Assembly: GCA_965261355.1 (NCBI GenBank)
Contig: CBDHDK010000002.1
Coordinates: 2,456 to 66,455, forward strand
Direction: 5' to 3'
DNA: 64,000 bases
Source of the DNA: Dehalococcoidia bacterium
GTDB lineage: Bacteria > Chloroflexota > Dehalococcoidia > Lucifugimonadales > UBA3495
Shown here: piece by piece, positions 6,054 to 57,180 of the stretch
Position numbering within the stretch: the stretch's first letter is position 1
How the letters are laid out: each line of letters begins with the position of its first letter
The notes under the pieces: model-generated
Database searches by the model: none
What the model was told of the DNA's origin: nothing
What the model saw: only the letters and a program-made list of their open reading frames with translations
Position numbers and translations under genes: made by a program

Positions 6054-6150
6054 GGCAGGGAGATGCGGATGGAGAAGATTGTGCCTATCGCCCGCTTATG
6101 CGGGAAAGACGGGTCTCAAGGCCTCCGGCGTTTAAAACGCGATTGCCCTG
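6054..6150 (-). repeat. solo, degenerate copy of the hairpin-containing end module of the ~1-kb elements
   Basis: The reverse complement of 6095-6150 reads CAGGGCAATCGCGTTTTAAACGCCGGAGGCCTTGAGACCCGTCTTTCCCGCATAAGCGGG. This parallels CAAGGAAATCGCGTCTTAAATGCCGGAGG...CCCGCGCAGGCGGG at 12946 and 13743. The far end (about 6054) is only weakly similar. Confidence 0.4.
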
Positions 6151-12785: not shown

Positions 12786-12945
12786 TCAAATCACTGATCG
12801 CTCACGCCAGGAGTTCCCGACCGAGAAGCATGCCGCCCCCCAGGACGACCAGAATGATAACGACCTAGCGGAATGCCTGCTGGTTGAGGCGACTGACCAG
12901 CAAACTTGCGGTCCCGAATCCGACGAGCAGTCCTGGGAGCGGCAT
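12786..12945 (-). pseudogene. C-terminal piece of a TauE/SafE-type permease gene split by element A
   Basis: Minus-strand reading immediately after the element gives MPLPGLLVGFGTASLLVSRLNQQAFR*VVIILVVLGAACF.., with an in-frame TAG at 12865-12867. It continues the frame that ends at 13917. Confidence 0.5.
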
Positions 12946-13916
12946 CAAGGAAATCGCGTCTTAAATGCCGGAGGCTTTGTAATCCGTCATCCCCGCAATC
13001 CGTCATCCCCGCGCAGGCGGGGATCCAAACCCCCGTCTACGCTCGCTCCCAGAACCGCGGGAGCCACCCTCACTCATGAATTGATTACACTTGCCCCTTG
13101 CCTACTCCTGCAGGACGTGTGTAGCATTGATATAAGAATATGCGTTCGGGTCAAGAGCGGGATATTATCCCTGTGGGAGACATCGCCGTCGTAAGGGTGA
13201 AATCGCTGCCGTAAATGCCCGTCCTGGCAGTCTGGTCATTGTGAAAAACCTGATTGAGACAAGGCTGAGGCCCCTCGAACCACCGCCACTCCACCCGACA
13301 CCCCAAAGCTGCAATGAACGGAAATGCTCCGATTTGCTCGGAATTTCAAGATTTATGGGCCGCCCGGGCCCTTCAGGAGATGCTCAATGTCCCTCGCTCA
13401 GATAAGGAGCCGCGTCAGAACCCTCCAGCGTCGTTTTGCCCTCGCCCTCTCGGTTGTACGCGCACGCCGCGTCGCAGAGCGCCTCTGCCAGGATTGGACC
13501 GCCGACCACGCCGACGGCAAACCCCTGCCCGACCCCTTCCAGGCGGTCGCGAAGGTGCGTGAAGCCGGTATCCGCAACGCTGCCTTCATCGACTTTCAGA
13601 GATACATACGGAGCTGCGTCGACGACAACCGCTGCCCCGAGCGAGCCCCGCGGCTTCCTCGAATCCCTGTTGCCCCGGGCCTCCAACGCCGGCCTCGTCC
13701 GCGCCGCCCTGCACTGGGACGCCGGCCCCCGGGACTGACCGGCAGGGAAATCCCGTCTCAAACGCCGGAGGCCGCGTACCCCGTCTTTCCCGCGCAGGCG
13801 GGAATCCAAACCCCCGTCTCACCTCGCATCCAGAACCGAAGGAGGCACTGCCACCACTACCTGCACCGCCAATACGGCCCGATTTGTGTGCTGAGTCATA
13901 AGACGCGATTACCCTG
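12946..13916 (+). mobile_element. ~1-kb TIR/TSD-bounded element, copy A (no recognisable transposase)
   Basis: Ends are CAAGGAAATCGCGTCTTA... and ...TAAGACGCGATTACCCTG, an 18-bp imperfect TIR with a 12-bp perfect core AATCGCGTCTTA. Flanking 10-bp repeats are GGAGCGGCAT (12936-45) and GGAGCAGCAT (13917-26). The element is collinear with the inverted copy at 48124..49114. Confidence 0.75.
13387..13738 (+). pseudogene. element-borne small ORF, copy A, frameshifted by a 4-bp insertion
   Basis: MSLAQIRSRVRTLQRRFALALSVVRARRVAERLCQDWTADHADGKPLPDPFQAVAKVREAGIRNAAFIDFQRYIRSCVDDNRCPE, then the frame is lost. Copy A reads cccgagCGAGcccc where copy B reads cccgagcccc. The C-terminus PRGFLESLLPRASNAGLVRAALHWDAGPRD continues in another frame. 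Confidence 0.65.
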
Positions 13917-14090
13917 GGAGCAGCATCGCCATATTGACAAGGGTGTCGCGAGTGTAGAGACCGGTGGAGGCATAGAGCACGACCGCGATGAGGCTGGAGA
14001 AGCCGAACATTGCAGCGAGGGAAGCGCGAACCGTCTCGGTGGGCCAGCGCTGGACGACGGCGAGCTCCATTCCGGTCAGCATTGGTCAGC
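13917..14090 (-). pseudogene. upstream piece of the TauE/SafE-type permease gene split by element A
   Basis: MLTGMELAVVQRWPTETVRASLAAMFGFSSLIAVVLYASTGLYTRDTLVNMAMLLPG, followed by a stop (TAA) supplied by the element TIR. The sequence further upstream is degenerate. Confidence 0.5.
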
Positions 14091-14467
14091 GCCTACTGAA
14101 GACCTTGCGCCATTTGTGAATCCCAATTTTGGGGTTGCCAGTGTCCTTCCAGCGTCAAACCGCAGTATTGTGGGCGGCGATTGAGAAGATGGCAATGAAG
14201 TCGGACCTGCGCTCCGATCGCATAACCCGCTGGCCGCTATCTGGAAGGCCGTCGGCGTCAAGTGGTCCAGGCCTGGAGGGACATCGTCAGCTGACGGGAG
14301 GGAATGGTTTCCGACTTTCGTGCAGGGTATGTATCAAGAGAGGAAAGAATACACAAAATTTTCACGAAATCGTTATACAAGGCCTTTGATTAAGAAACTT
14401 TCTGAGACTAGAGTAAGTTGTCGCTGGCAGTTCCAAGATAGACCAGAGCGAGTCAGCGAGCCCAGAA

Positions 14468-15679
14468 ATGAGGAAGGCTATTTCGATGATTGCGTTCACA
14501 TCCTGGATACGATGGGCTATTGTCCCAGCATTGACGGTGGCGGTAGTCGCGATGGCCGCGGCTTGCGGATCTGACCCGACACCGACCTCCGCTCCTGCCC
14601 CGACGGCGGCGCCGGAGCCTACGGCCGCGCCAACGAACACACCTGAACCAACGGCCGCGCCCGCACCTACGAATACACCCGCTCCCACCAACACGCCCGC
14701 GCCAACGAATACGCCGGTCCCCACCGAGGCGCCGGCACCTCCTCCGACCAACGCTCCGGAGCCAACGGCGGCTCCGACTGAACCGCCGGGCATGATGGCA
14801 GGATCCCTGAGGGAGTTCAAGATCACGGAGACGACGACAGGAGGAGAAATGGCGGCCCTGCTATCGGACGAGGAGAACACCTGCGTTCGCGAGGCCGTGG
14901 GGGACGCCCTTTTCGGACTGATACAGTCCGCTCCCATAATGATGATGGCGGCCGGAGACATCTCCCAGACGGCGCCGCTGTTCAATTGTCTGACCGAGGA
15001 GAACGTGGTGTACCTGGTTGTGGCATTCCTGGACGTCCAGGCTGGTGGGTGGAGCGAGGAGAGCCGCGATTGCATCACCAACGTGGGCCTGGACCACCCT
15101 GACGCGGTGTACGTGAGGCTTGGACTGCAACTGTCGCCTGAACCCATAGACCCGTCTGAAACCCTTGACCACAACGTGCAAATCTACGAGTGCCTGTCCA
15201 TCGAGGAACAGAGGGACTTCACGATCGGCCTCTGGACAGCGTTCGACAGGCACACAGGGGCCACCGGGGCCGACATCCTTGGCCTGCTGTCGGATGCCGA
15301 GGCGGCCTGTCTACAAGAGGGCCTTACCGAAGAACAGCTAATCGCGATCGCGGTAGCCACACCCCTTGAGGCCGTAACCATTGGCAGCGTAGTGTCCCAC
15401 TGCATCGACCCTGAGACGAACATCAAAATACTCGCAAACGGGATACAGTGGGCCATCGGCGGCGTGACCGACGAGACCCTGAGTTGCCTTGAGAACTTCG
15501 CCAGGGACAACCCGGAGTTCACCGCGCTCTTCGCGTCCGGCTATGACTCCATACACAACATGTCTGCCGAGCAGTTCGTGGAGCTCAGCGACGTCGGACA
15601 AGGACAATACGCCTGCATGACCGAGGACGAGCTGTTGCGAGTGCAGTATGCCGCCACAGAGGCGCTGGCCATGCCGTAG
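14468..15679 (+). CDS. putative lipoprotein with Pro/Thr linker and repeated Cys-containing modules
   Basis: Signal peptide then ..MAAACGSDPTPT.., a PT-rich linker (APTNTP repeats), and repeated LSDEENTCVREA / LSDAEAACLQEG / VTDETLSCLENF motifs. Confidence 0.65.
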   Translation: MRKAISMIAFTSWIRWAIVPALTVAVVAMAAACGSDPTPTSAPAPTAAPEPTAAPTNTPEPTAAPAPTNTPAPTNTPAPTNTPVPTEAPAPPPTNAPEPTAAPTEPPGMMAGSLREFKITETTTGGEMAALLSDEENTCVREAVGDALFGLIQSAPIMMMAAGDISQTAPLFNCLTEENVVYLVVAFLDVQAGGWSEESRDCITNVGLDHPDAVYVRLGLQLSPEPIDPSETLDHNVQIYECLSIEEQRDFTIGLWTAFDRHTGATGADILGLLSDAEAACLQEGLTEEQLIAIAVATPLEAVTIGSVVSHCIDPETNIKILANGIQWAIGGVTDETLSCLENFARDNPEFTALFASGYDSIHNMSAEQFVELSDVGQGQYACMTEDELLRVQYAATEALAMP

Positions 15680-15772: not shown

Positions 15773-16199
15773 CTGCGTTAGCCCCAATCCACCGAAGGGG
15801 TGAGTGTGGCGGCGGGTTGAAGGGGTAAAAAAGTGCTCCCGGCATCGGGGATAATGGTTGTTGTTACGGCAAACCATCCTCGAAGCAGGAGCACCTGATA
15901 GATGCTACCACCCAGCGAGCCCGACCGCATCCGAATCGCCTTCGACGACCACCGCCTGGTGAGCAATGCCGGGCTGATCCTTCCGGTCACCCTCGCCCAG
16001 CGCCTGGGCTTGGGTGAACTCGTCGGCAATCACGTTGACCTGGGAAATGCGCCGGGGCGGGCGAACACGGGGGACAAGATGCTGACCCTGGTGGCCTCCG
16101 CGCTGGCCGGTGGCGACTGCATTGACGACGCCGATGCGCTGCGTGCGGGGCGGACCTCCTTGGTGCTGGGGTGCACGGTCAAGGCGCCGTCCACCCTAG

Positions 16200-18115
16200 A
16201 AATCTGGCCGGAAAGGGTTTGAGTCGCCGAGCATTTATAATTGGGGTCAACAAGAGTAGCGAGGGTTGAGAATGCTGGGAGAGCGTTCGGACCAGAGGGG
16301 TCTTTGGGAAGCGGACCGGTTGTACCTGGACCACGTGGGGAAGGACACCTTCTACGGTCTGCTGGCTTCCCTGCGGGGCCGGCTGTTCCAGGACTCCGAT
16401 TTCGCGGTGTTCTACTGCGCTGACAACGGCCGGGACAGCGTGCCGCCCAGCCTGCTGGCCACGGCGCTGCTGTTGCAGACCCACGACAAGGTGAGCGACG
16501 CCGAGGCCAAGGCCCGGGCCGACTTCGACATCCGCTGGAAGGTGGCTCTGGGGATTGAGGTGGAGGACAGGCCCTTCGCCAAAAGCACGCTCCAGGTGTT
16601 CCGGGCCCAGCTGATCCTGCACGACAGGGTGCGGGAGGTATTCGAGTCCAGCGTGCGCCTCGCCCGGGAGTCGGGCTACCTGAAGAGGCGCAGCATGAAG
16701 GTGGCTCTGGACACGACCAACATCCTGGGCCGGGGCGCGGTGAGGGACACCTACAATCTGCTGGCCGACGGGATCGTCAAACTGATGCGGGCGCTGGCGC
16801 AGGTTGAGGGAATCAGCGTCGGGAAATGGGCCAAGGCCCGGGGATACGGGCGGTACCTCGCCTCCAGCATCAAGGGAGAGGCGACCATCGACTGGTCGGA
16901 CAAGCGGGCGCGGACGGCACTGCTGGCGGGGATTGTGGGAGACGCGGACCGGCTCTTGGAATTATCGCGGCTGGCCCAGGGGGAGTTGCCCGAGGACGGT
17001 GCTGAGCGTCAGCAGATAGTGGCGGCGGCGGAACTGCTGGGGCAGTTGCTGCTCCAGGACATTGAGCGCAAGGGTGGCGACGGCGACGGCGACGGCGATG
17101 ACGGCGTGAGCCTCAAGGACGGGGTGAGCAAGGACCGGATGATGTCGGTGCACGACCCTGAGATGCGCCACGGGCACAAGAGCAGCAGGAGACGCTTCGA
17201 CGGACACAAGGCGGCGATTGTGGTTGACACCGACACCCAGCTGATCACCGCCGTGGAGGTACTGCCGGGCAACGCTCCGGACAACCTGGGGGCGCTGGAA
17301 CTGGTAGAACAGAGCGAGGCCAACACCGGTGTGCCGGTGCAGGAGGCCATGGGCGACGCCGCCTATGGAGACGGAGCTACCAGGCAGACCTTCGCCGACG
17401 CGGGCCGCACCCTGATTGCCCGGGTGCCGGGACGGCCCGACCGGCAGCGCTTTCCCAAGAATGACTTTGTCATCGACCTGGTGGCGGGCAGTTGCACCTG
17501 TCCGGCAGGGCAGGTCACCCACACCATAGTGCCAGCGGGACGGCGTACGGATGCCGCGGGTCGGATACACCACTTGCAGGCCTTCCAGTTCGACGGGTCC
17601 GAATGTATGACATGTCCCCTGCGGTCTCAGTGCATCTCGGCCAAGGGCAGGAAGGGACGGCGGGTGCTGATCCATCCCCAGGAGGCTCTCCTGCAACAGG
17701 CCCGTGCGTTGCAACAGAGCGCCGGGTATGACGAATATCGAGCGCGACGCGTGGTGGTCGAGCACAGATTGGCCCGACTGGTCCAGTTGGGCATTCGCCA
17801 GTCCCGCTACTTCGGACGCGCCAAGACGCGATTCCAGCTGTACCTAGCGGCTACAGTGGCCAACCTGACCCTGGTGGCGGGCAAAATCGAGCTGTCGGAC
17901 AGTGTCGGCGGTGGGCTTCCGCGCCACCGCGCCGTCCTCAGTGCCGTCCCCAGTGCCGTCCCCAGTGATGTCCAGGCTGTTTCCCACGGTGTGGTCGCCC
18001 ATGCTACGGCCATTTTCGGCGCTGTCCGGCTCGGACTGCTGTGGTCCCAGATTCTGTTCGCCCCGGCTTTACTGCCGAAATCTCTCTCCCCATCCAGGGC
18101 TTTTCGGCCCGGCTT
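16200..18115 (+). mobile_element. IS1182/IS5-superfamily-like insertion inside IS1380 copy 1
   Basis: Flanked by CTAG at 16196-99 and 18116-19; the uninterrupted copy has CTGG at this site. The ends are imperfect inverted repeats (AAATCTGGCCGGAAAGGG.. / ..GGGCTTTTCGGCCCGGCTT). Confidence 0.7.
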
Positions 18116-18119
18116 CTAG
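16266..18119 (+). CDS. IS1182-like (IS5 superfamily) DDE transposase
   Basis: 617-aa ORF. The N-terminal region ..FYCADNGRDSVPPSLLATALLLQTHDKVSDAEA..DIRWKVALG.. is typical of the DUF772-type transposase N-domain. The stop codon is the TAG of the CTAG duplication. Confidence 0.65.
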   Translation: MRMLGERSDQRGLWEADRLYLDHVGKDTFYGLLASLRGRLFQDSDFAVFYCADNGRDSVPPSLLATALLLQTHDKVSDAEAKARADFDIRWKVALGIEVEDRPFAKSTLQVFRAQLILHDRVREVFESSVRLARESGYLKRRSMKVALDTTNILGRGAVRDTYNLLADGIVKLMRALAQVEGISVGKWAKARGYGRYLASSIKGEATIDWSDKRARTALLAGIVGDADRLLELSRLAQGELPEDGAERQQIVAAAELLGQLLLQDIERKGGDGDGDGDDGVSLKDGVSKDRMMSVHDPEMRHGHKSSRRRFDGHKAAIVVDTDTQLITAVEVLPGNAPDNLGALELVEQSEANTGVPVQEAMGDAAYGDGATRQTFADAGRTLIARVPGRPDRQRFPKNDFVIDLVAGSCTCPAGQVTHTIVPAGRRTDAAGRIHHLQAFQFDGSECMTCPLRSQCISAKGRKGRRVLIHPQEALLQQARALQQSAGYDEYRARRVVVEHRLARLVQLGIRQSRYFGRAKTRFQLYLAATVANLTLVAGKIELSDSVGGGLPRHRAVLSAVPSAVPSDVQAVSHGVVAHATAIFGAVRLGLLWSQILFAPALLPKSLSPSRAFRPGF

Positions 18120-18303
18120 GCACCTTCCTGCGCAGCTTCCGGTGGGGCCATGTCCGCCAGCTGGACCGGGTGAGCCGTGAGCTGCTGGCGCGGGCCTAGG
18201 CCACTGGGGCCGGACCCGGTGACGGGCCGTTGACCATAGACCTGGACTCCACCATCTGCGAGACCTCCCCACTAACCAACGTCGTCACGCGGCAATTGGC
18301 GCG

Positions 18304-19695
18304 TCAGGGGGGGGCGTAGGTTGTGTGTTCCGGAGCATCGGGGATGGGCACCAGCAAATAGCCCAGTTGCGCCGCCCGCCGCTTTGCCGCGCGCAACGCC
18401 CGCTGCTGATATCGGCGTTCGTAGTATTCGGCCCCGGCGTCCACGTACTCTTGACCGTAGCGCAGCATGGAATAGAAGATGCGAGCCAGCTTGTGGGCCG
18501 TGGCGGTGATGGCCTTGGGCCCGCCCATCTGTGCCTTCTTCCGGCGCAGGAAGGCGCCCAGGGCGCTGTCGGAGCGGTGCAGAGCGTTGGCCGCCAGACG
18601 TAAGGCCGCCGCCGCACGGTTGGCGCTGGGCTTGGTCTTGGAGCTCATGACCTTGCCGCCGGTGATGCGGTTGTTCGGGCTCAGCCCCAACCAGGACGCA
18701 AAGTGCTTCGCACTCGGCCATTTCGTCATGTCGGCGCCAATCTCACTCACCACCTTGAGCGCGGTGTAGGCATCCACACCGTCGATCTGGGTCAGGTCAA
18801 CCCCCGTCATACGGTACAGGTGCGTCCAAACGTCGAAGCGTGGCGCGTTTCCTTTGCTGCGTCTCCGGCCGGACTTCGCCGCCGGAGGATCACCATTGCT
18901 GCGGTCCTCGAAACGCTCCAACTGGGCTTCAATCTCCCGGTCGCACTCGGCAATCTTATCCTGATAGAACCGGTACAGCTCCAGGGCTTGGTTCAGCTCG
19001 AAGATGTGCTCCTCCCGCCAGTGCCCCTGCAGCGACTTGGCGATGGTTGCCTCGTCGGCTTTGATCCTGGGATCGCGCAATTGCGCCAGTTGTCGCGGGT
19101 CCCGTTGGCCGTCCACGATGGCCTCGATGATGTCCAGGCCGGTCTTGCCGGTGATATCGCTGATGACGTGGTGGAGCTTCACGTTCATCTGGGTCAGCGC
19201 CTTCTGCATATGCTGGATATGGTGGGATGCGTACTGCACCAGCATGACCCGCTGCCGCAGGTAGCTGCGTAAGCGTCGGATCTCCCCGTCGGGCCGGAAA
19301 GCCCCCGAGAGCAGGCCGTAGGTGTGCAGCTGCTGCAGCCACTGGCAGTCCAGCACGTCGGTCTTGCGGCCGGGCACGTTCTTGATGCGCCGGGGGTCCA
19401 CCAGCATCACCTGGAAGCCCCGTTCTTCCAGCACCCCGAACAGCGGTATCCAGTACACGCCGGTGGACTCCATGACCACGGTCTCCACACCACACTCGGT
19501 CAGCCAGTCCGCCAAACGGTACAGGTCCGCCGTGAAAGCCTCGAACTCTCGCACCGGCTGCTCCGCCCGGTCGGCGGGCACCGCCACATAGTGGCTGGTA
19601 GCGCCCACGTCGATGCCCGCCGCGTTCAGGTTCAGCTGGGACAGCCCTTCCGGTTTTGCCCCGCTCTGGCGTCTGCTCATCATCGCCTCTGCCAT
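18304..19695 (-). CDS. IS110-family DEDD transposase/recombinase
   Basis: ..NAAGIDVGATSHYVAVP..VVMESTGVYWIPLF..LVDPRRIKNVPGRKTDVLDCQWLQ.. and the C-terminal ..SWLGLSPNNRITGGK... The start is uncertain (ATG at 19695, 19683 or 19680; track start 19881). Confidence 0.85.
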   Translation of the reverse strand: MAEAMMSRRQSGAKPEGLSQLNLNAAGIDVGATSHYVAVPADRAEQPVREFEAFTADLYRLADWLTECGVETVVMESTGVYWIPLFGVLEERGFQVMLVDPRRIKNVPGRKTDVLDCQWLQQLHTYGLLSGAFRPDGEIRRLRSYLRQRVMLVQYASHHIQHMQKALTQMNVKLHHVISDITGKTGLDIIEAIVDGQRDPRQLAQLRDPRIKADEATIAKSLQGHWREEHIFELNQALELYRFYQDKIAECDREIEAQLERFEDRSNGDPPAAKSGRRRSKGNAPRFDVWTHLYRMTGVDLTQIDGVDAYTALKVVSEIGADMTKWPSAKHFASWLGLSPNNRITGGKVMSSKTKPSANRAAAALRLAANALHRSDSALGAFLRRKKAQMGGPKAITATAHKLARIFYSMLRYGQEYVDAGAEYYERRYQQRALRAAKRRAAQLGYLLVPIPDAPEHTTYAPP

Positions 19696-19940
19696 TGCCG
19701 TGTAGGCGTGTCGCCGGAGGGAGCCGCGGACTGTAGCCACTCTCCCCAACGGGATCGCCCCGATCGGGGCTTCACCAATGATGCCGTCGTAAGGCTCCCG
19801 GACCATGCTACGGGTCGGGCAATACGCACCAGAGTCTGCTCGGTCTTTGTCCGGACGACACGCCTCGCCATGAGCATACATCCTTGGGCCGACTCACCAG
19901 TTAGTCGCCTCTGCACAGGCCGGACAAGGCCATAATATTG
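19696..19940 (-). ncRNA. candidate bridge-RNA-encoding left end of the IS110-like element
   Basis: A ~245-nt non-coding stretch 5' of the recombinase, as in IS110-group elements. It contains internal copies of both insertion junctions (TGCTACGGG at 19806-14; CTCCCCA at 19742-48) and a GCCCCGATCGGGGC palindrome (19757-70). No structure model was run. Confidence 0.35.
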
Positions 19941-21155
19941 CTACGGGCTGGCCAAGGAGGGGGCGCGCCACCACGGCTACACCGGCCAGCGGGGCTATCA
20001 CCCGCTGCTGGCCGTCGCCGCCGGCACCGGCGACGTGCTGATGGTCCGGCTCAGAGAGGGCCGCGCCAATACCGCTCGGGGCGCCGCTCACTTCCTGCGT
20101 GAGACGGTGGGACGGGTGCGCTACGCCGGGGCCAAAGGACAACTCACGATGCGGGCCGACAGCGGCTTCTACACCCACGCCATCGTCGCGGTCTGCCGCA
20201 AGCTGGATGTCCGTTTCTCCATCACCGTTCGGCAGCACGCCAGCCTGCGGAACCTCATCGAGGCCATACCGGAGGCGGACTGGACGCCGGTCCCCTACTG
20301 GACGGACGGCGCCGCCGACGTGGCGGAGACCAGCTACACCCCCTTCCAGAGTGAGCCCGGCGCCGCACCGGTGCGGCTCATAGTCCGGCGGGTGAAGCCC
20401 ACGCCTGGCTCTCAACTGGCCCTGTTGGCCACCTACAGCTATCACGCCTTCATCACCGACCGGGATGGCGACACCCTGGATCTCGAGGCAGACCATCGCC
20501 GCCACGCCGAGATCGAGAATGCCATTCGCGACCTCAAGTACGGCGTGGGTCTCAACCATCTCCCGTCCGGCCGTTTCGCCGCCAACGGCGCTTGGCTGGC
20601 GGTCCAGGCGATTGCTCACAACCTGGCGCGCTGGACGGCGCGCATCGGTCTGGGCGAGCAGGTGGTGACCACCAAGACCCTGCGGCGGCGATTCTTCTCC
20701 CTCGCCGGTCGGCTCACCCGCTCGGCGCGCCGCCTGACCCTGCATTTGCCTCGGCGCTGGCCTTGGGAGGAGGCCCAGTTCACTGGCGCCCTGACCCGAT
20801 TGCGCACCCTGCCGCTTCCCTCCTGACCGTGGCGCCGGCAACCGGCCCACCATCCTCGCCCTCATCCACCAGCCAGTCGAAGATCTCTCCCACTCGCGCC
20901 GCACGAATCGGCCAGCGAGAGTTCCTTGCTGCCTTCGGCCACCTCATGAGCGGCTCCTCTCACCGCCAACAGACCTGCTACTGGCTCCGCCCGCCCCATA
21001 TCCGCCGGGACGGTCCCTTCCCCATCCCTGTGATGCCCTGTTCCACCGCCCTCCCCACTCCGTTCGGTGGATTGGGGCTTAAATGGCGGGCGAACGAAGG
21101 GTAACGGAGGCGACGGAAGGGGCGGCAGGAAGGTGTCGGGCGAAAGGACGGTGAG

Positions 21156-47603: not shown

Positions 47604-47990
47604 CTACGATCGCGAAGGGTACGGGCTGGGGATGGACGACATACTCAGGTCATGCTCGACGTAGTGGCCGAGGAAGGTGCCGCCAACGACATGGAGGTGA
47701 CCGTGGCTCTGGCTCTGAAGGCCATCCCGTCCGAAGTTGGAGAGGATGCGGAACCCGTTGGGGGCGTACATAGCGCCCATGTCTACCATCAACCGGCCCA
47801 GCCGGGGCAACAACCCGCTGTCCCACATACCAATCTGCGATAGGTGCTCCTTGGGCATTACCAGAAGCATGAGTGGCACCCAGTCCAGCCTGTTTACGAT
47901 GACGATAATGTCATTGTCCACATAGCGAACCCTGGCGGGTGACTTGCCAGCGACTATCTGGCAAAAGACACAGTTGGGATCGGTTCTCAA
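47604..47990 (-). CDS. HIT-family (histidine triad) protein
   Basis: ..DPNCVFCQIVAGKSPA.., ..LLVMPKEH.., histidine triad ..SQSHGHLHVVGG... The start is taken at TTG 47990. The longer track ORF (to 48497) reads into element B and is not credible. Confidence 0.75.
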   Translation of the reverse strand: MRTDPNCVFCQIVAGKSPARVRYVDNDIIVIVNRLDWVPLMLLVMPKEHLSQIGMWDSGLLPRLGRLMVDMGAMYAPNGFRILSNFGRDGLQSQSHGHLHVVGGTFLGHYVEHDLSMSSIPSPYPSRS

Positions 47991-48123
47991 GGGCTCGTAT
48001 CCGCAGAGGTAATCCGGCGATTTTGCGATGTGAATATAGTCGGGGGCAATGAGGTTGTCAACGCGAATGGCGGCTAGACTACCTTGGCTGGAGAGGCGGA
48101 ATGTGACGGGCCTGCCCTTGAAG

Positions 48124-49114
48124 CAGGGCAATCGCGTCTTATGACTCAGCCCACAAATCGGGCCCGATTGGCGGTGCAGGTAGTGGTGGCAGTGCCTCCT
48201 TCGGTTCTGGGTGCGAGGTGAGACGGGGGTTTGGATTCCCGCCTGCGCGGGAAAGACGGGGTACGCGGCCTCCGGCGGGGGTACGCGGCCTCCGGCGTTT
48301 GAGACGGGATTGCCCTGGTGGTCAGTCCCGGGGGCGGGCGTCCCAGTGCAGGGCGGCGCGGACGAGGCCGGCGTTGGAGGCCCGAGGCAGCAGGGATTCG
48401 AGGAATCCGCGGGGCTCGGGGCAGCGGTTTTCGTCGACGCAGTGGCGTATGTATCTCTGAAAGTCGATGAAGGCAGCGTTGCGAATACCGGCTTCACGCA
48501 CCTTCGCGACCGCCTGGAAGGGGTCGGGCAGGGGTTTGCCGTCGGCGTGGTCGGTGGTCCAATCCTGGCAGAGGCGCTCGGCGACGCGGCGGGCGCGGAC
48601 TACGGAGAGGGCGAGGGCAAAACGACGCTGGAGGGTTCTGACGCGGCTCCTTATCTGAGCGAGGGTCATTGAGCATCTCCTCAAGGGCCCGGGCGGCCCA
48701 TAAATCTTGAAATTCCGAGCAAATCGGAGCGTTTCCGTTCATTGCAGCTTTGGGGTGGCCGGTGGAGTGGCGGTGGTTCGAAGGGCCTCAGCCTTGTCTC
48801 AGTCAGGATTTTCACAATGGCCAGCCAGCCAGGACGGGCATTTACGGCAGCTATTTCACCCTCACGACGGCGATGTCTCCCGCGGGAAAATATCCTGTTC
48901 TCTATCAGCACACATATTCTTATATATATGCTACACACGTCCTGCAGGAGTCGGCAAGGGGCAAGTGTCATCAATTCAGGAGTGAGGGTGGCTACTTCAC
49001 TTCGGTTCTGGGTGCGGGCGTAGACGGGGGTTTGGATTCCCGCCTGCGCGGGGATGACGGATTGCGGGGATGACGGATTACAAAGCCCCCGGCATTTAAG
49101 ACGCGATTGCCTTG
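48124..49114 (-). mobile_element. ~1-kb TIR-bounded element, copy B (inverted relative to copy A)
   Basis: Ends are CAGGGCAATCGCGTCTTATGAC... and ...CATTTAAGACGCGATTGCCTTG. The flanks GCCCTTGAAG / GCCTTGACG(T) form an imperfect TSD. Collinear with 12946..13916 on the opposite strand. Relative to A it has an extra 18-bp tandem duplication and lacks the 4-bp insertion. Confidence 0.75.
48322..48669 (-). CDS. element-borne small basic protein (115 aa), intact copy
   Basis: MTLAQIRSRVRTLQRRFALALSVVRARRVAERLCQDWTTDHADGKPLPDPFQAVAKVREAGIRNAAFIDFQRYIRHCVDENRCPEPRGFLESLLPRASNAGLVRAALHWDARPRD. Against copy A, I count 7 synonymous differences and 4 amino-acid changes in the first ~255 nt (hand alignment). 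Confidence 0.6.
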   Translation of the reverse strand: MTLAQIRSRVRTLQRRFALALSVVRARRVAERLCQDWTTDHADGKPLPDPFQAVAKVREAGIRNAAFIDFQRYIRHCVDENRCPEPRGFLESLLPRASNAGLVRAALHWDARPRD

Positions 49115-55485: not shown

Positions 55486-57180
55486 CCCGAATCCACCGAT
55501 GGGAGGCGTGAAAGCTGGGCAAATTGGTATGAGGGAGCCTACAAGGGAGAGAGCCTTGGCTCCATTGGGACCGATGTGACACGGCAGAGGGTTTTCAGTA
55601 GCCGCCCCGGGCCTGGAAAGCGGTCTATGGAGGCTGGGAATCGCCGGATAGTGAGATCGGACGCAGCGGAATGCACTCGCGGACCGGGCGGACGCGAGTT
55701 TGGAGGCCTTGGGTCGGTTGCGGATAGCGCCGTCAGGCTGGGAGTGGGATGGCTCGCAGTCGGGCCAGGGCGAGAGTGGCCTGCTCAGCCCAGGGCCAGC
55801 CCCGGGGAAGATGCAAAGTGAGTCTGCGCGCCGAGCGGGTGAGCCGTCCCACCAGACCGAAGAACCGTCGCCGGAGGGTCTTGGTGGTCACGATCTGCTC
55901 GCCCAGACCAATTCGCGCCGTCCAGCGGGCCAGGTTATGGGCCATCACCTGCACCGCCAACCAGGCGGCGTTGGCGGCGAAGCGGCCCGAGGGAAGATGG
56001 TTCAGGCCGACGCCGTACTTCAGGTCTCGGATGGCATTCTCGATCTCGGCGTGGCGGCGATGGTCAGCCTCCAGTTCGAGCGTCTCCCCGTCCCGGTCGG
56101 TGATGAAGCCGTGATAGCTGTAGCTGGCGAACAGGGCCAGTTGGGAACCGGGCGTGGGCTTCACCCGCCGGACGATGAGCCGCACCGGCGCGGCGCCGGC
56201 CTCACTCTCAAAGGGAGTGTAGGTGGTCTCGGCCACATCGGCGGCGCCGTCCATCCAGTATGGGATGGGCGTCCAATCCGTCTCGGGTATGGCCTCGATG
56301 AGATTGCGCAGGCTTTTGTGCTGGCGGATGGTGATGGAGTAGCGGACATCCATCTTGCGGCAGACGGCGACGATGGCGTGGGCATAGAAGCCGCTGTCGG
56401 CCCGCACCGTGAGTCGGCCCCTGGCGCCGGCGTAGCGCACCCGTCCCACCGTCTCGCGCAGGAAGTGGGCGGCACCCCGGGCGGTGTTGGCCCGGCCCTC
56501 GCGCAGCCGGGACATCAGCACGTCGCCGGTGCCAGAGGCCACGGCCAGCAGCGGGTGATAGCCTCGCTTGCCGGTATAGCCGTGGTGGCGTGCGCCCTCC
56601 TTGGCCAGACCGTAGGTCTCGCAGATGGTGGAGTCCAGGTCGATGGTCAGCGGCCCGTCGCCGGGTCCGGCACCGGCGGCCCAGGCCCGTGCCAGCAGCT
56701 CCCGGCTCACCCGGTCCAGCTGACGGACATGGCCCCATCGGAAGCTGCGCAGGAAGGTGCCCAGGGTGGAGGGCGCTTTGACCATGCACCCCAGCACCGA
56801 GTAGGTCCGCCCCGCACGCAGCGCATCGGCGTCGTCAATGCAGTCGCCGCCCGCCAGCGCCGAGGCCACCAGCGTCAGCATCTTGTCTCCCGCGTTCGCC
56901 CGCCCCGGCGCATCCCCGAGGTCGAGGTGACGGTCAACGAGTTCACGCAGGCCCACGTGCTGGGCCAGGGTGGCCGGCAGGAGCAGCCCGGCATTGTTGA
57001 CCAGGCGGTGGTCGTCGAAGGCTATTTGGATGCGGTCGGGGTGCTCAAGTGGTAGCATCTGTTGGGTGCTCCTTGTTTCTGGTCGGTTTCCTTTCTCGAA
57101 AACCATTATCCCAGATTCAGAGGAGCACCTTCTTGCCGCTTCAGTTCGCCAACCTGACGCCCACTATCGGTGGATTCGGG
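55486..57180 (-). mobile_element. IS1380-like element, copy 2, intact
   Basis: IRs are CCCGAATCCACCGAT (55486) and ATCGGTGGATTCGGG (ending at 57180). Flanked by direct CTTAA at 55481-85 and 57181-85. 1695 bp with a single 457-aa ORF. Confidence 0.85.
55733..57106 (-). CDS. IS1380-family DDE transposase
   Basis: 457 aa. ..IAFDDHRLVNNAGLLLPATLAQHVGL.., ..IDLDSTICETYG..KRGYHPLL.., ..HAEIENAIRDLKYGVGLNHLPSGRFAANAAWL... Family assigned from memory. Confidence 0.8.
   Translation of the reverse strand: MVFEKGNRPETRSTQQMLPLEHPDRIQIAFDDHRLVNNAGLLLPATLAQHVGLRELVDRHLDLGDAPGRANAGDKMLTLVASALAGGDCIDDADALRAGRTYSVLGCMVKAPSTLGTFLRSFRWGHVRQLDRVSRELLARAWAAGAGPGDGPLTIDLDSTICETYGLAKEGARHHGYTGKRGYHPLLAVASGTGDVLMSRLREGRANTARGAAHFLRETVGRVRYAGARGRLTVRADSGFYAHAIVAVCRKMDVRYSITIRQHKSLRNLIEAIPETDWTPIPYWMDGAADVAETTYTPFESEAGAAPVRLIVRRVKPTPGSQLALFASYSYHGFITDRDGETLELEADHRRHAEIENAIRDLKYGVGLNHLPSGRFAANAAWLAVQVMAHNLARWTARIGLGEQIVTTKTLRRRFFGLVGRLTRSARRLTLHLPRGWPWAEQATLALARLRAIPLPA

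Follow-up and report, generated by a model that had tools for sequence, protein, structure and literature searches.

A transposase-free insertion in a TauE/SafE-like gene

The window, the 64,000-nt stretch of Dehalococcoidia DNA analysed here, carries at positions 12946-13916 a discrete 971-bp insertion bounded by 18-bp terminal inverted repeats (TIRs; consensus CAGGGCAATCGCGTCTTA). It lies between two copies of a target-site duplication (TSD) and interrupts what is left of a permease gene of the TauE/SafE type on the minus strand. The insertion site is laid out as follows:

12802-12945, minus strand: downstream part of the TauE/SafE relic, which has a TAG within it (12867-12865) and its natural stop at 12804-12802
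12936-12945: left copy of the TSD, GGAGCGGCAT, 9/10 identical to 13917-13926 and present as a single copy in the empty-site homologue at locus L140
12946-12963, plus strand: left TIR, CAAGGAAATCGCGTCTTA, of the ISAs1 type, 16/18 to the consensus CAGGGCAATCGCGTCTTA
13899-13916, minus strand: right TIR, CAGGGTAATCGCGTCTTA when read on the minus strand, TAAGACGCGATTACCCTG as it reads at the element end
13917-13926: right copy of the TSD, GGAGCAGCAT, 9/10 identical to 12936-12945
13917-14082, minus strand: upstream piece of the TauE/SafE relic, whose present open reading frame (ORF) runs from 14082 to 13909 and ends on a TAA stop (13911-13909) within the right repeat

The outer ends CAAGGAAATCGCGTCTTA and TAAGACGCGATTACCCTG are complementary at 16 of 18 positions, and the duplication, which has one mismatch in the window, is perfect (10/10, GGAGCAGCAT) at the same site in a related strain (L003/L005). 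The inverted-repeat ends and the 10-bp direct repeat with one mismatch read by the first-pass annotation of this DNA are therefore borne out. When up to three mismatches are allowed, the 18-mer occurs seven times in the window against 0.02 expected, these being the two ends and one internal site in each of two copies of the element, plus a relic at 6133-6150. The right ends and the internal copy start with CAGGG, and most left ends with CAAGG.

Removal of the element together with one 10-mer yields a single continuous minus-strand frame (..TLVNMAM(P/L)LPGLLVGFGTASLLVSRLNQQAFR), which matches Pfam TauE over positions 155-235 of 237 (E = 2e-7) with 31.3 bits, slightly short of the Pfam cutoff of 32.6 bits. 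A TauE homologue from another genome (P0158, locus L140; 78% amino-acid identity) reads through the junction (..NMGMLLPGLLVGFG..), and blastn of the L140 DNA against the window flanks gives two alignments that overlap by exactly the 10 duplicated bases. This homologous TauE gene, in a different genomic context, is the only uninterrupted site found, and it speaks against the possibility that the permease had never been one ORF and that the flanking 10-mers had arisen by chance. The earlier reading of a genuine insertion, with flanks that join into one permease-like frame and a host gene that now stops inside the TIR, is thus upheld. The interrupted gene was also correctly called TauE/SafE-like, but it is only a C-terminal relic that lacks the first ~150 codons and carries an internal TAG where P0158 has Tyr. 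The permease was reduced to a remnant before the insertion or became one afterwards, and the fragment should be annotated as a pseudogene.

No transposase ORF (PF13808 + PF01609 / NF033564) was found in 12946-13916, nor in the second copy of the element at 48124-49114, and we therefore treat the element as a non-autonomous derivative rather than as an insertion sequence (IS). Window 12946-13916 is a genuine transposon insertion without a transposase of its own.

Further copies, each with its own target duplication

The search for further copies that had been proposed at first pass recovered one more in the window and additional sites in related genomes. The window copy is:

48124-49114, minus strand: second copy, 991 bp; its neighbours are a HIT-family gene and a luciferase-like monooxygenase gene, and its ORF2 (the cargo gene; 48322-48669, minus strand) is intact

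The two window copies are 94% identical (93.8%), their alignment stops exactly at the repeat tips, and the flanks are unrelated. The second copy is flanked by the duplication CGTCAAGGC/CTTCAAGGG, which matches at 7/9 positions in the window and at 8/9 in L002. On a 2.36-Mb contig of a related strain the element is present at both window sites, in flanking DNA 96-98% identical, and at others:

Site A (L003): duplication GGAGCAGCAT, 10/10
Site B (L002): duplication CGTCAAGGG / CTTCAAGGG, 8/9
Site C (L001): duplication GCGACGGGGC / GCGACAGGGC, 9/10
Site D (L147): duplication CCTGCTGACA / TCTGCTGACA, 9/10
Site E (L148): duplication CGTCCAACCT, 10/10

Together with the window site (9/10), these make six scored cases of target duplications of 9-10 bp. 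A cluster look-up gave at least eight distinct ORF2 variants on the 2.36-Mb contig, and therefore roughly ten copies per genome. The A-site and B-site copies of this related genome share 99.9% identity, while copies at the same site across the two genomes are only 94-95% identical although their flanks are 96-98% identical. The comparison covered the two window copies and L002, L003, L136 and L138. This pattern points to gene conversion between dispersed copies, that is, to concerted evolution, and it would be a clean example of sequence homogenisation between them.

The HIT-family gene beside the second copy (window 47604-48152, minus strand; L002 3499-4047; L138 3441-3968) has its called start inside or at the right repeat (48124-48141), and in the window it is called as a 297-amino-acid ORF read through from inside the element. 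Insertion of the second copy may have replaced the 5' end or the promoter of this gene.

Ends of the ISAs1 type

ISs of the ISAs1 family have 14-22-bp inverted repeats that start with CAGGG, and 10-bp direct repeats (PMC11946415); the ends of ISArsp11, for example, read CAGGGCTGATGCAAAGTCG with a 10-bp direct repeat (PMC6305408). The window element shares these properties, with 18-bp repeats, a CAGGG start at the right ends and duplications of 9-10 bp, where about 10 bp (8-10) is expected of the family. A scan of metagenome contigs with the pattern CARGGNAATCNCGTCTYA returned 120 loci, and in at least 10 the match borders an ISAs1 transposase gene. The complete 1230-bp IS of L089 has CAGGGCAATCGCGTCTTA at both ends, identical to the consensus of the window element, and that of L062 is a 1223-bp relative with the repeat at both ends. 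Both transposases match PF13808 and PF01609, and that of L089 scores 410.9 bits against the NCBIfam ISAs1 equivalog NF033564 (cutoff 70). L089 and L062 come from unrelated metagenomes and not from the host, and beyond the ~18-bp repeat tips no similarity between the L089-type IS and the window element was found. The ISAs1-family origin of the element ends is therefore shown.

An ISAs1 element also resides in the host lineage. On the 2.36-Mb contig of the related strain, L147 540-1763 is a 1224-bp ISAs1 IS with perfect 18-bp repeats (CAGGACGATTGCAAAGTC), flanked by a perfect duplication (GTAACCACC(C)) and adjoining both a solo 278-bp MITE (miniature inverted-repeat transposable element) with window-type repeats and a cassette copy. 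Its repeat, which we call type b to distinguish it from the type-a repeat of the window element, is identical to the repeat of a MITE that follows ORF2 in the more distant genome L006, and the cassette copy of L144 combines a type-b-like left end with a type-a right end.

Based on these observations, we consider the element likely to be a mobile insertion cassette (MIC), non-autonomous and derived from ISAs1, which is moved in trans by an ISAs1 transposase and carries a functional gene. It has what defines MICs, namely IS-type inverted repeats, no transposase, a passenger gene and a flanking target duplication. By analogy with the family, the two outer 18-bp inverted repeats would be bound by a DDE transposase of the ISAs1 family acting in trans, which would move the 0.97-kb segment between them; the target would be cut with a stagger of ~10 bp, and its repair would leave the 9-10-bp direct duplication. 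Within the segment lies a self-contained module, made up of a promoter-like region, a conserved leader that has three short direct repeats plus a hairpin, and ORF2. That the movement was in trans, and which transposase effected it in this host, is inferred. The earlier suggestion of a non-autonomous TIR/TSD element carrying a passenger holds.

ISAs1-type elements are clustered end to end in several places (L147 540-3131, L148 1719-3027, L001 3528-3545, L144 3027-3070). In L147 the tip of the solo MITE marks the insertion point of the resident IS, and the MITE itself lies 10 bp from the cassette copy; several target flanks resemble the terminal repeat itself, e.g. CAGGGCAATTGCC next to L001; and in L144 tandem repeats of the repeat tip extend beyond the right end. 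This clustering suggests a preference for insertion next to existing ends.

The IS1182-like transposases (DUF772/DDE_Tnp_1_6) found close to copies in L001 and L008 were considered as partners and rejected, as their ends (..CCGGAAAGTGGTTTGAGTCGC) are unrelated to the element repeat. The position of an IS1182-like element differs between close strains (L001 1-1470, beside an intact ADH gene; L004 1-1860, inside the ADH gene), which means that other ISs in this population are active at present.

A mosaic of MITE-like units and a cargo module

The internal organization of the element, together with one related relic elsewhere in the window, is the following:

12946-13067, plus strand: left arm, the 5' ~106 bp of a MITE-like unit, with a 16-bp internal duplication
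13068-13293, plus strand: poorly conserved spacer, with an AT-rich promoter-like stretch at ~13125-13150
13294-13386, plus strand: leader (~90 bp), conserved with L006, L008, L010 and L011
13387-13738, plus strand: cargo gene ORF2, a pseudogene in this copy, in which a GAGC duplication shifts the frame; the intact-frame stop is the TGA at 13736-13738
13743-13760, plus strand: third copy of the terminal repeat, inside the element, CAGGGAAATCCCGTCTCA, placed 4 nt past the ORF2 stop and at the same position in every copy
13743-13916, plus strand: complete 174-bp MITE-like unit, made of repeat, REP-like hairpin (13787-13804) and repeat
6091-6150, minus strand: relic of a MITE-like unit that retains the terminal repeat CAGGGCAATCGCGTTTTA and ~40 bp more, located just upstream of a BioY-family gene

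At its left the element has a truncated MITE-like arm, in its middle the cargo module, and at its right a complete MITE-like unit of 174 bp. The left arm (~120 bp) carries a REP-like hairpin (13006-13023) and is, by blastn, a direct repeat (~80%) of 13743-13848; its match to the 174-bp unit is confined to positions 1-106 and an inner inverted repeat is missing, and the element is therefore a mosaic cassette rather than a clean MITE pair. The internal repeat copy has the orientation of the left repeat and opens the right unit, which ends in the right repeat. MITEs are by definition short (~30-300 bp), non-coding, TIR-bounded and multicopy. At 971 bp and with a protein-coding gene under selection, the element as a whole falls outside this definition, into which only the 174-bp right unit and its 278-bp solo relative, with both repeats, in the related strain (L147 1773-2050) fit. 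Nor is it a MITE-bracketed composite transposon, which has two complete MITE copies, the left arm being incomplete. The ~110-bp direct repeats also prompted us to consider a diversity-generating retroelement, which was rejected because the mismatches show no A-specificity and a reverse transcriptase is lacking.

Upstream of ORF2, the AT-rich stretch of the spacer resembles a TAGAAyrTATrTACTAT box found upstream of homologous modules in L006, L008 and L011; a scan of the element for the sigma-70 consensus found no promoter. The leader, with counterparts at L006 3950-3990, L008 3955-4000 and L011 2925-2985, holds three direct repeats of ~10-11 bp (13313-13347; GAxCGGAWWT-like, spaced 10-11 bp) plus an A-rich run, and a hairpin, GGGCC-N5-GGCCC (13357-13371), just upstream of the Shine-Dalgarno sequence AGGAG (13375-13379). 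RNAalifold on the leader gave no supported structure other than this hairpin, which is conserved in sequence and shows no supporting covariation, and Rfam searches over the whole window (gathering threshold) and over the element (E <= 1) returned nothing credible. The direct-repeat motif may be a protein-binding site.

The cargo protein ORF2 belongs to an unannotated family

ORF2 is intact in the second window copy (115 amino acids) and in other strains, which also have an intact 115-amino-acid ORF2 at the same site as the first copy. In the 12946-13916 copy a tandem 4-bp GAGC duplication (13639-13646) causes a frameshift, at which gene callers give a spurious read-through ORF of 265-286 amino acids (13324-14184; P0010). 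Read-through ORFs of 265-297 amino acids across the element should accordingly be annotated as artefacts. The sole sizeable ORF of 115-120 Arg-rich residues reported at first pass is a real 115-amino-acid protein, but its gene is frameshifted in this copy.

The protein is strongly basic (19 Arg residues, pI 10.9), and the ratio of nonsynonymous to synonymous substitutions (dN/dS) is 0.26-0.40 between copies with 70-96% amino-acid identity; by this measure ORF2 is under purifying selection. No match for ORF2 was found in Pfam, NCBIfam, PHROGs or PADLOC, against which it was searched together with 62 family members, and none of these 62 diverse relatives has a Pfam match. Sequence-profile searches of the PDB gave nothing meaningful. 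An AF2 model is all-helical and confident (pLDDT 91.4, pTM 0.80), and Foldseek found no PDB match for this model and none in PDB or BFVD for an earlier model (pLDDT 85), the best E value being about 1. The claim that ORF2 is unlike known transposase families is corroborated by these profile and structure searches. The functional ORF2 protein most plausibly binds nucleic acid or acts in regulation.

A library-wide profile search returned 252 cluster representatives at E <= 0.001 and 103 at E <= 1e-10, so that the family comprises ~250 clusters as counted at 50% identity; no relatives were found on viral contigs in a search for them. The named genomes that carry ORF2 are Dehalococcoidia and other Chloroflexi metagenome-assembled genomes (MAGs), with 2-3 copies each (contig scan, 5-sequence alignment), and conservation between lineages is limited to the leader and ORF2. 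One subfamily (P0006, P0007, P0012, P0016, L011 3340-3402) has a C-terminal tail, N-x-Y/C-R/K-P-x3-Y-x-G-x-V-F-P-I/L-L/M, which is absent from the window ORF2 protein.

Mobility of the cassette and the role of its cargo

Several observations weigh against a cassette mobilised in trans by ISAs1. At the level of the element itself, the left arm is not a complete MITE and the second window copy has an imperfect duplication. The resident ISAs1 transposase of the related strain is split into ORFs of 230 and 149 amino acids (96 and 47 bits against NF033564), and the type-b repeat of this IS is only 10/18 identical to the type-a repeat of the window element. The autonomous relative with the same TIRs that the first-pass annotation had proposed to look for exists in unrelated metagenomes (L089), but neither the window nor the ~100 kb of host-lineage DNA examined yielded an autonomous type-a IS. 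A transposase profile search gave 7997 matches, and the 120 listed were all on contigs unrelated to the host, nearly all of them short. Empty versions of the window sites were sought by exact-protein look-ups with the flanking window genes; apart from the uninterrupted homologous TauE site in L140, none emerged. All related strains found carry the element at both window sites, so that no polymorphism of insertion attests to recent movement. Finally, ORF2 modules are multicopy also without flanking ISAs1-type repeats (L008, L011-L015), and ISAs1-type mobilisation therefore does not explain all of the spread of the gene.

One alternative is that the element is a fossil, which transposed formerly but is immobile today and whose copies are kept alike only by gene conversion; we give this somewhat less than an even chance. 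The occupied sites in all related strains would be expected of such a fossil, as would the frameshift of ORF2 in the 12946-13916 copy and the split gene of the resident transposase, and the 6% difference between the window copies, set beside the near-identity of the A and B copies of the relative and the 94-95% identity of same-site copies, suggests conversion rather than new insertion. Against it, the perfect 10/10 duplications at L148, at L003 and around the resident IS suggest fairly recent events, the split in the transposase gene could be a long-read indel error, and only a small part of the genome has been seen.

A different possibility concerns the cargo. ORF2 could be, together with a second gene and the repeated leader motif, the active core of an undescribed selfish module of Chloroflexota rather than passive cargo, which we regard as unlikely. 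The second gene, ORF1, encodes a 169-amino-acid helix-turn-helix protein, precedes ORF2 in L006 (3377-3886) and L013 (2282-2791), and is fused to it in P0039; it matches terminase-small-subunit PHROGs (PHROG 2538, E = 2.6e-7) and, more weakly, HTH_Tnp_1_2. Such a module might recruit or regulate the ISAs1 transposase at the cassette ends, adapting ISAs1 transposases to its own ends, or it might travel by a separate route, e.g. through binding of the leader motif as a site of packaging or recombination. On this reading the module would have teamed up with ISAs1-type ends repeatedly and would not have captured them by chance. This would fit the multicopy state of ORF2 in several distant Chloroflexota genomes and the persistence of the ORF1-ORF2 pair between lineages whose ORF2 proteins are only 38% identical, as well as the terminase match of ORF1. 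In one MAG a long form (ORF1 and ORF2, L013) occurs together with short forms (ORF2 only, L014/L015), resembling the pairing of autonomous and deleted elements. The leader repeat motif recurs within the 5' part of ORF1 in L006, an ISAs1-type repeat begins 3-4 nt after the ORF2 stop both in the window (type a) and in L006 (type b), and cassette copies outnumber solo MITEs in the DNA examined. On the other hand, ORF2 lacks a catalytic motif and resembles no transposase, recombinase or nuclease, and a helical protein of 115 residues is unlikely to be an enzyme. The data neither favour nor refute the other first-pass suggestion, that the small protein itself acts in mobility. No trace of ORF1 was found in the window element, the ORF2 family was not found on viral contigs, and an ISAs1 transposase fully explains the ends and the duplications.

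That the window copies arose by segmental duplication, or by site-specific att integration, can be dismissed as highly improbable, since beyond the existence of two similar copies nothing favours it, the flanks are unrelated with similarity stopping at the repeat tips, no integrase or recombinase is present, and the duplicated target, which differs from site to site, excludes both.

Other features of the window

The window contains a nest of ISs (15844-20772 and 55700-57116). A DDE_Tnp_1_4 (PF13701) IS is intact at about 55.7-57.1 kb. An IS1182-like element (transposase 16266-18119) and an IS110-family element (transposase 18304-19881) divide a second, inverted copy of this IS (84-86% identical) into three. 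At 14468-15679 (plus strand) lies a gene for a 403-amino-acid protein with no Pfam match and an N-terminal hydrophobic segment, in which 18-bp tandem repeats (14603-14757) encode a Pro/Thr-rich region (PTNTPA-like).

Comparison with known systems and significance

The element resembles ISs of the ISAs1 family (ISAs1, ISArsp11, E. coli H-repeat YbfD/YdcC-type) in its 18-bp CAGGG repeats and 9-10-bp duplications; its repeats are identical to those of L089, and an ISAs1 IS is present in the same lineage. Unlike these ISs, it has no transposase gene, measures 0.97 kb rather than 1.2-1.5 kb, and carries an unrelated gene and an extra internal repeat, the likeness ending at the ~18-bp tips. MICs such as the qnrS2 cassette of Aeromonas plasmids have IS-type repeats around non-transposase genes (PMC5444012), are flanked by a target duplication and are presumed to be moved in trans (PMC5444012; PMC4133298). 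The window element shares all of this: IS-type repeats bracket a non-transposase gene, a target duplication flanks it, and movement in trans is presumed. It differs from MICs in its ISAs1-derived ends, in its ~ten copies per genome as opposed to one or few, and in its cargo, an orphan gene rather than a resistance or metabolic gene. Another such cassette is MIC231 of Bacillus cereus.

In MITE-driven composites, namely TIME-COMP of the Tn3 family and integron mobilisation units, MITE-like units flank a cargo (PMC4133298). In the window element, too, MITE-like units in direct orientation flank the cargo and the outer repeats form the ends, but, unlike in TIME-COMP, the left unit is truncated and lacks the inner repeat, the source IS family is another one, and the duplication is of 10 bp rather than 5 bp. 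The 174-bp right unit and the 278-bp copy of L147 are like bacterial MITEs with REP-like hairpins in being short and non-coding with a GC-rich hairpin; the 971-bp element is too long for these and encodes a protein.

IS-derived cassettes of this kind are already known; this one has ISAs1-derived ends, comes from an under-studied phylum, and has an unusually high copy number and an orphan cargo. The element itself is of modest interest; it offers a testable system, in little-studied Chloroflexota-like genomes, in which the end of a defined ISAs1 subfamily is linked to a non-autonomous carrier of cargo. The part that most deserves follow-up is the ORF2 family, an unannotated protein family on mobile DNA with ~ten copies per genome, a confidently predicted fold and no known relative. 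Should ORF2 turn out to influence transposition, a DDE transposon family would have an accessory factor of a new type.

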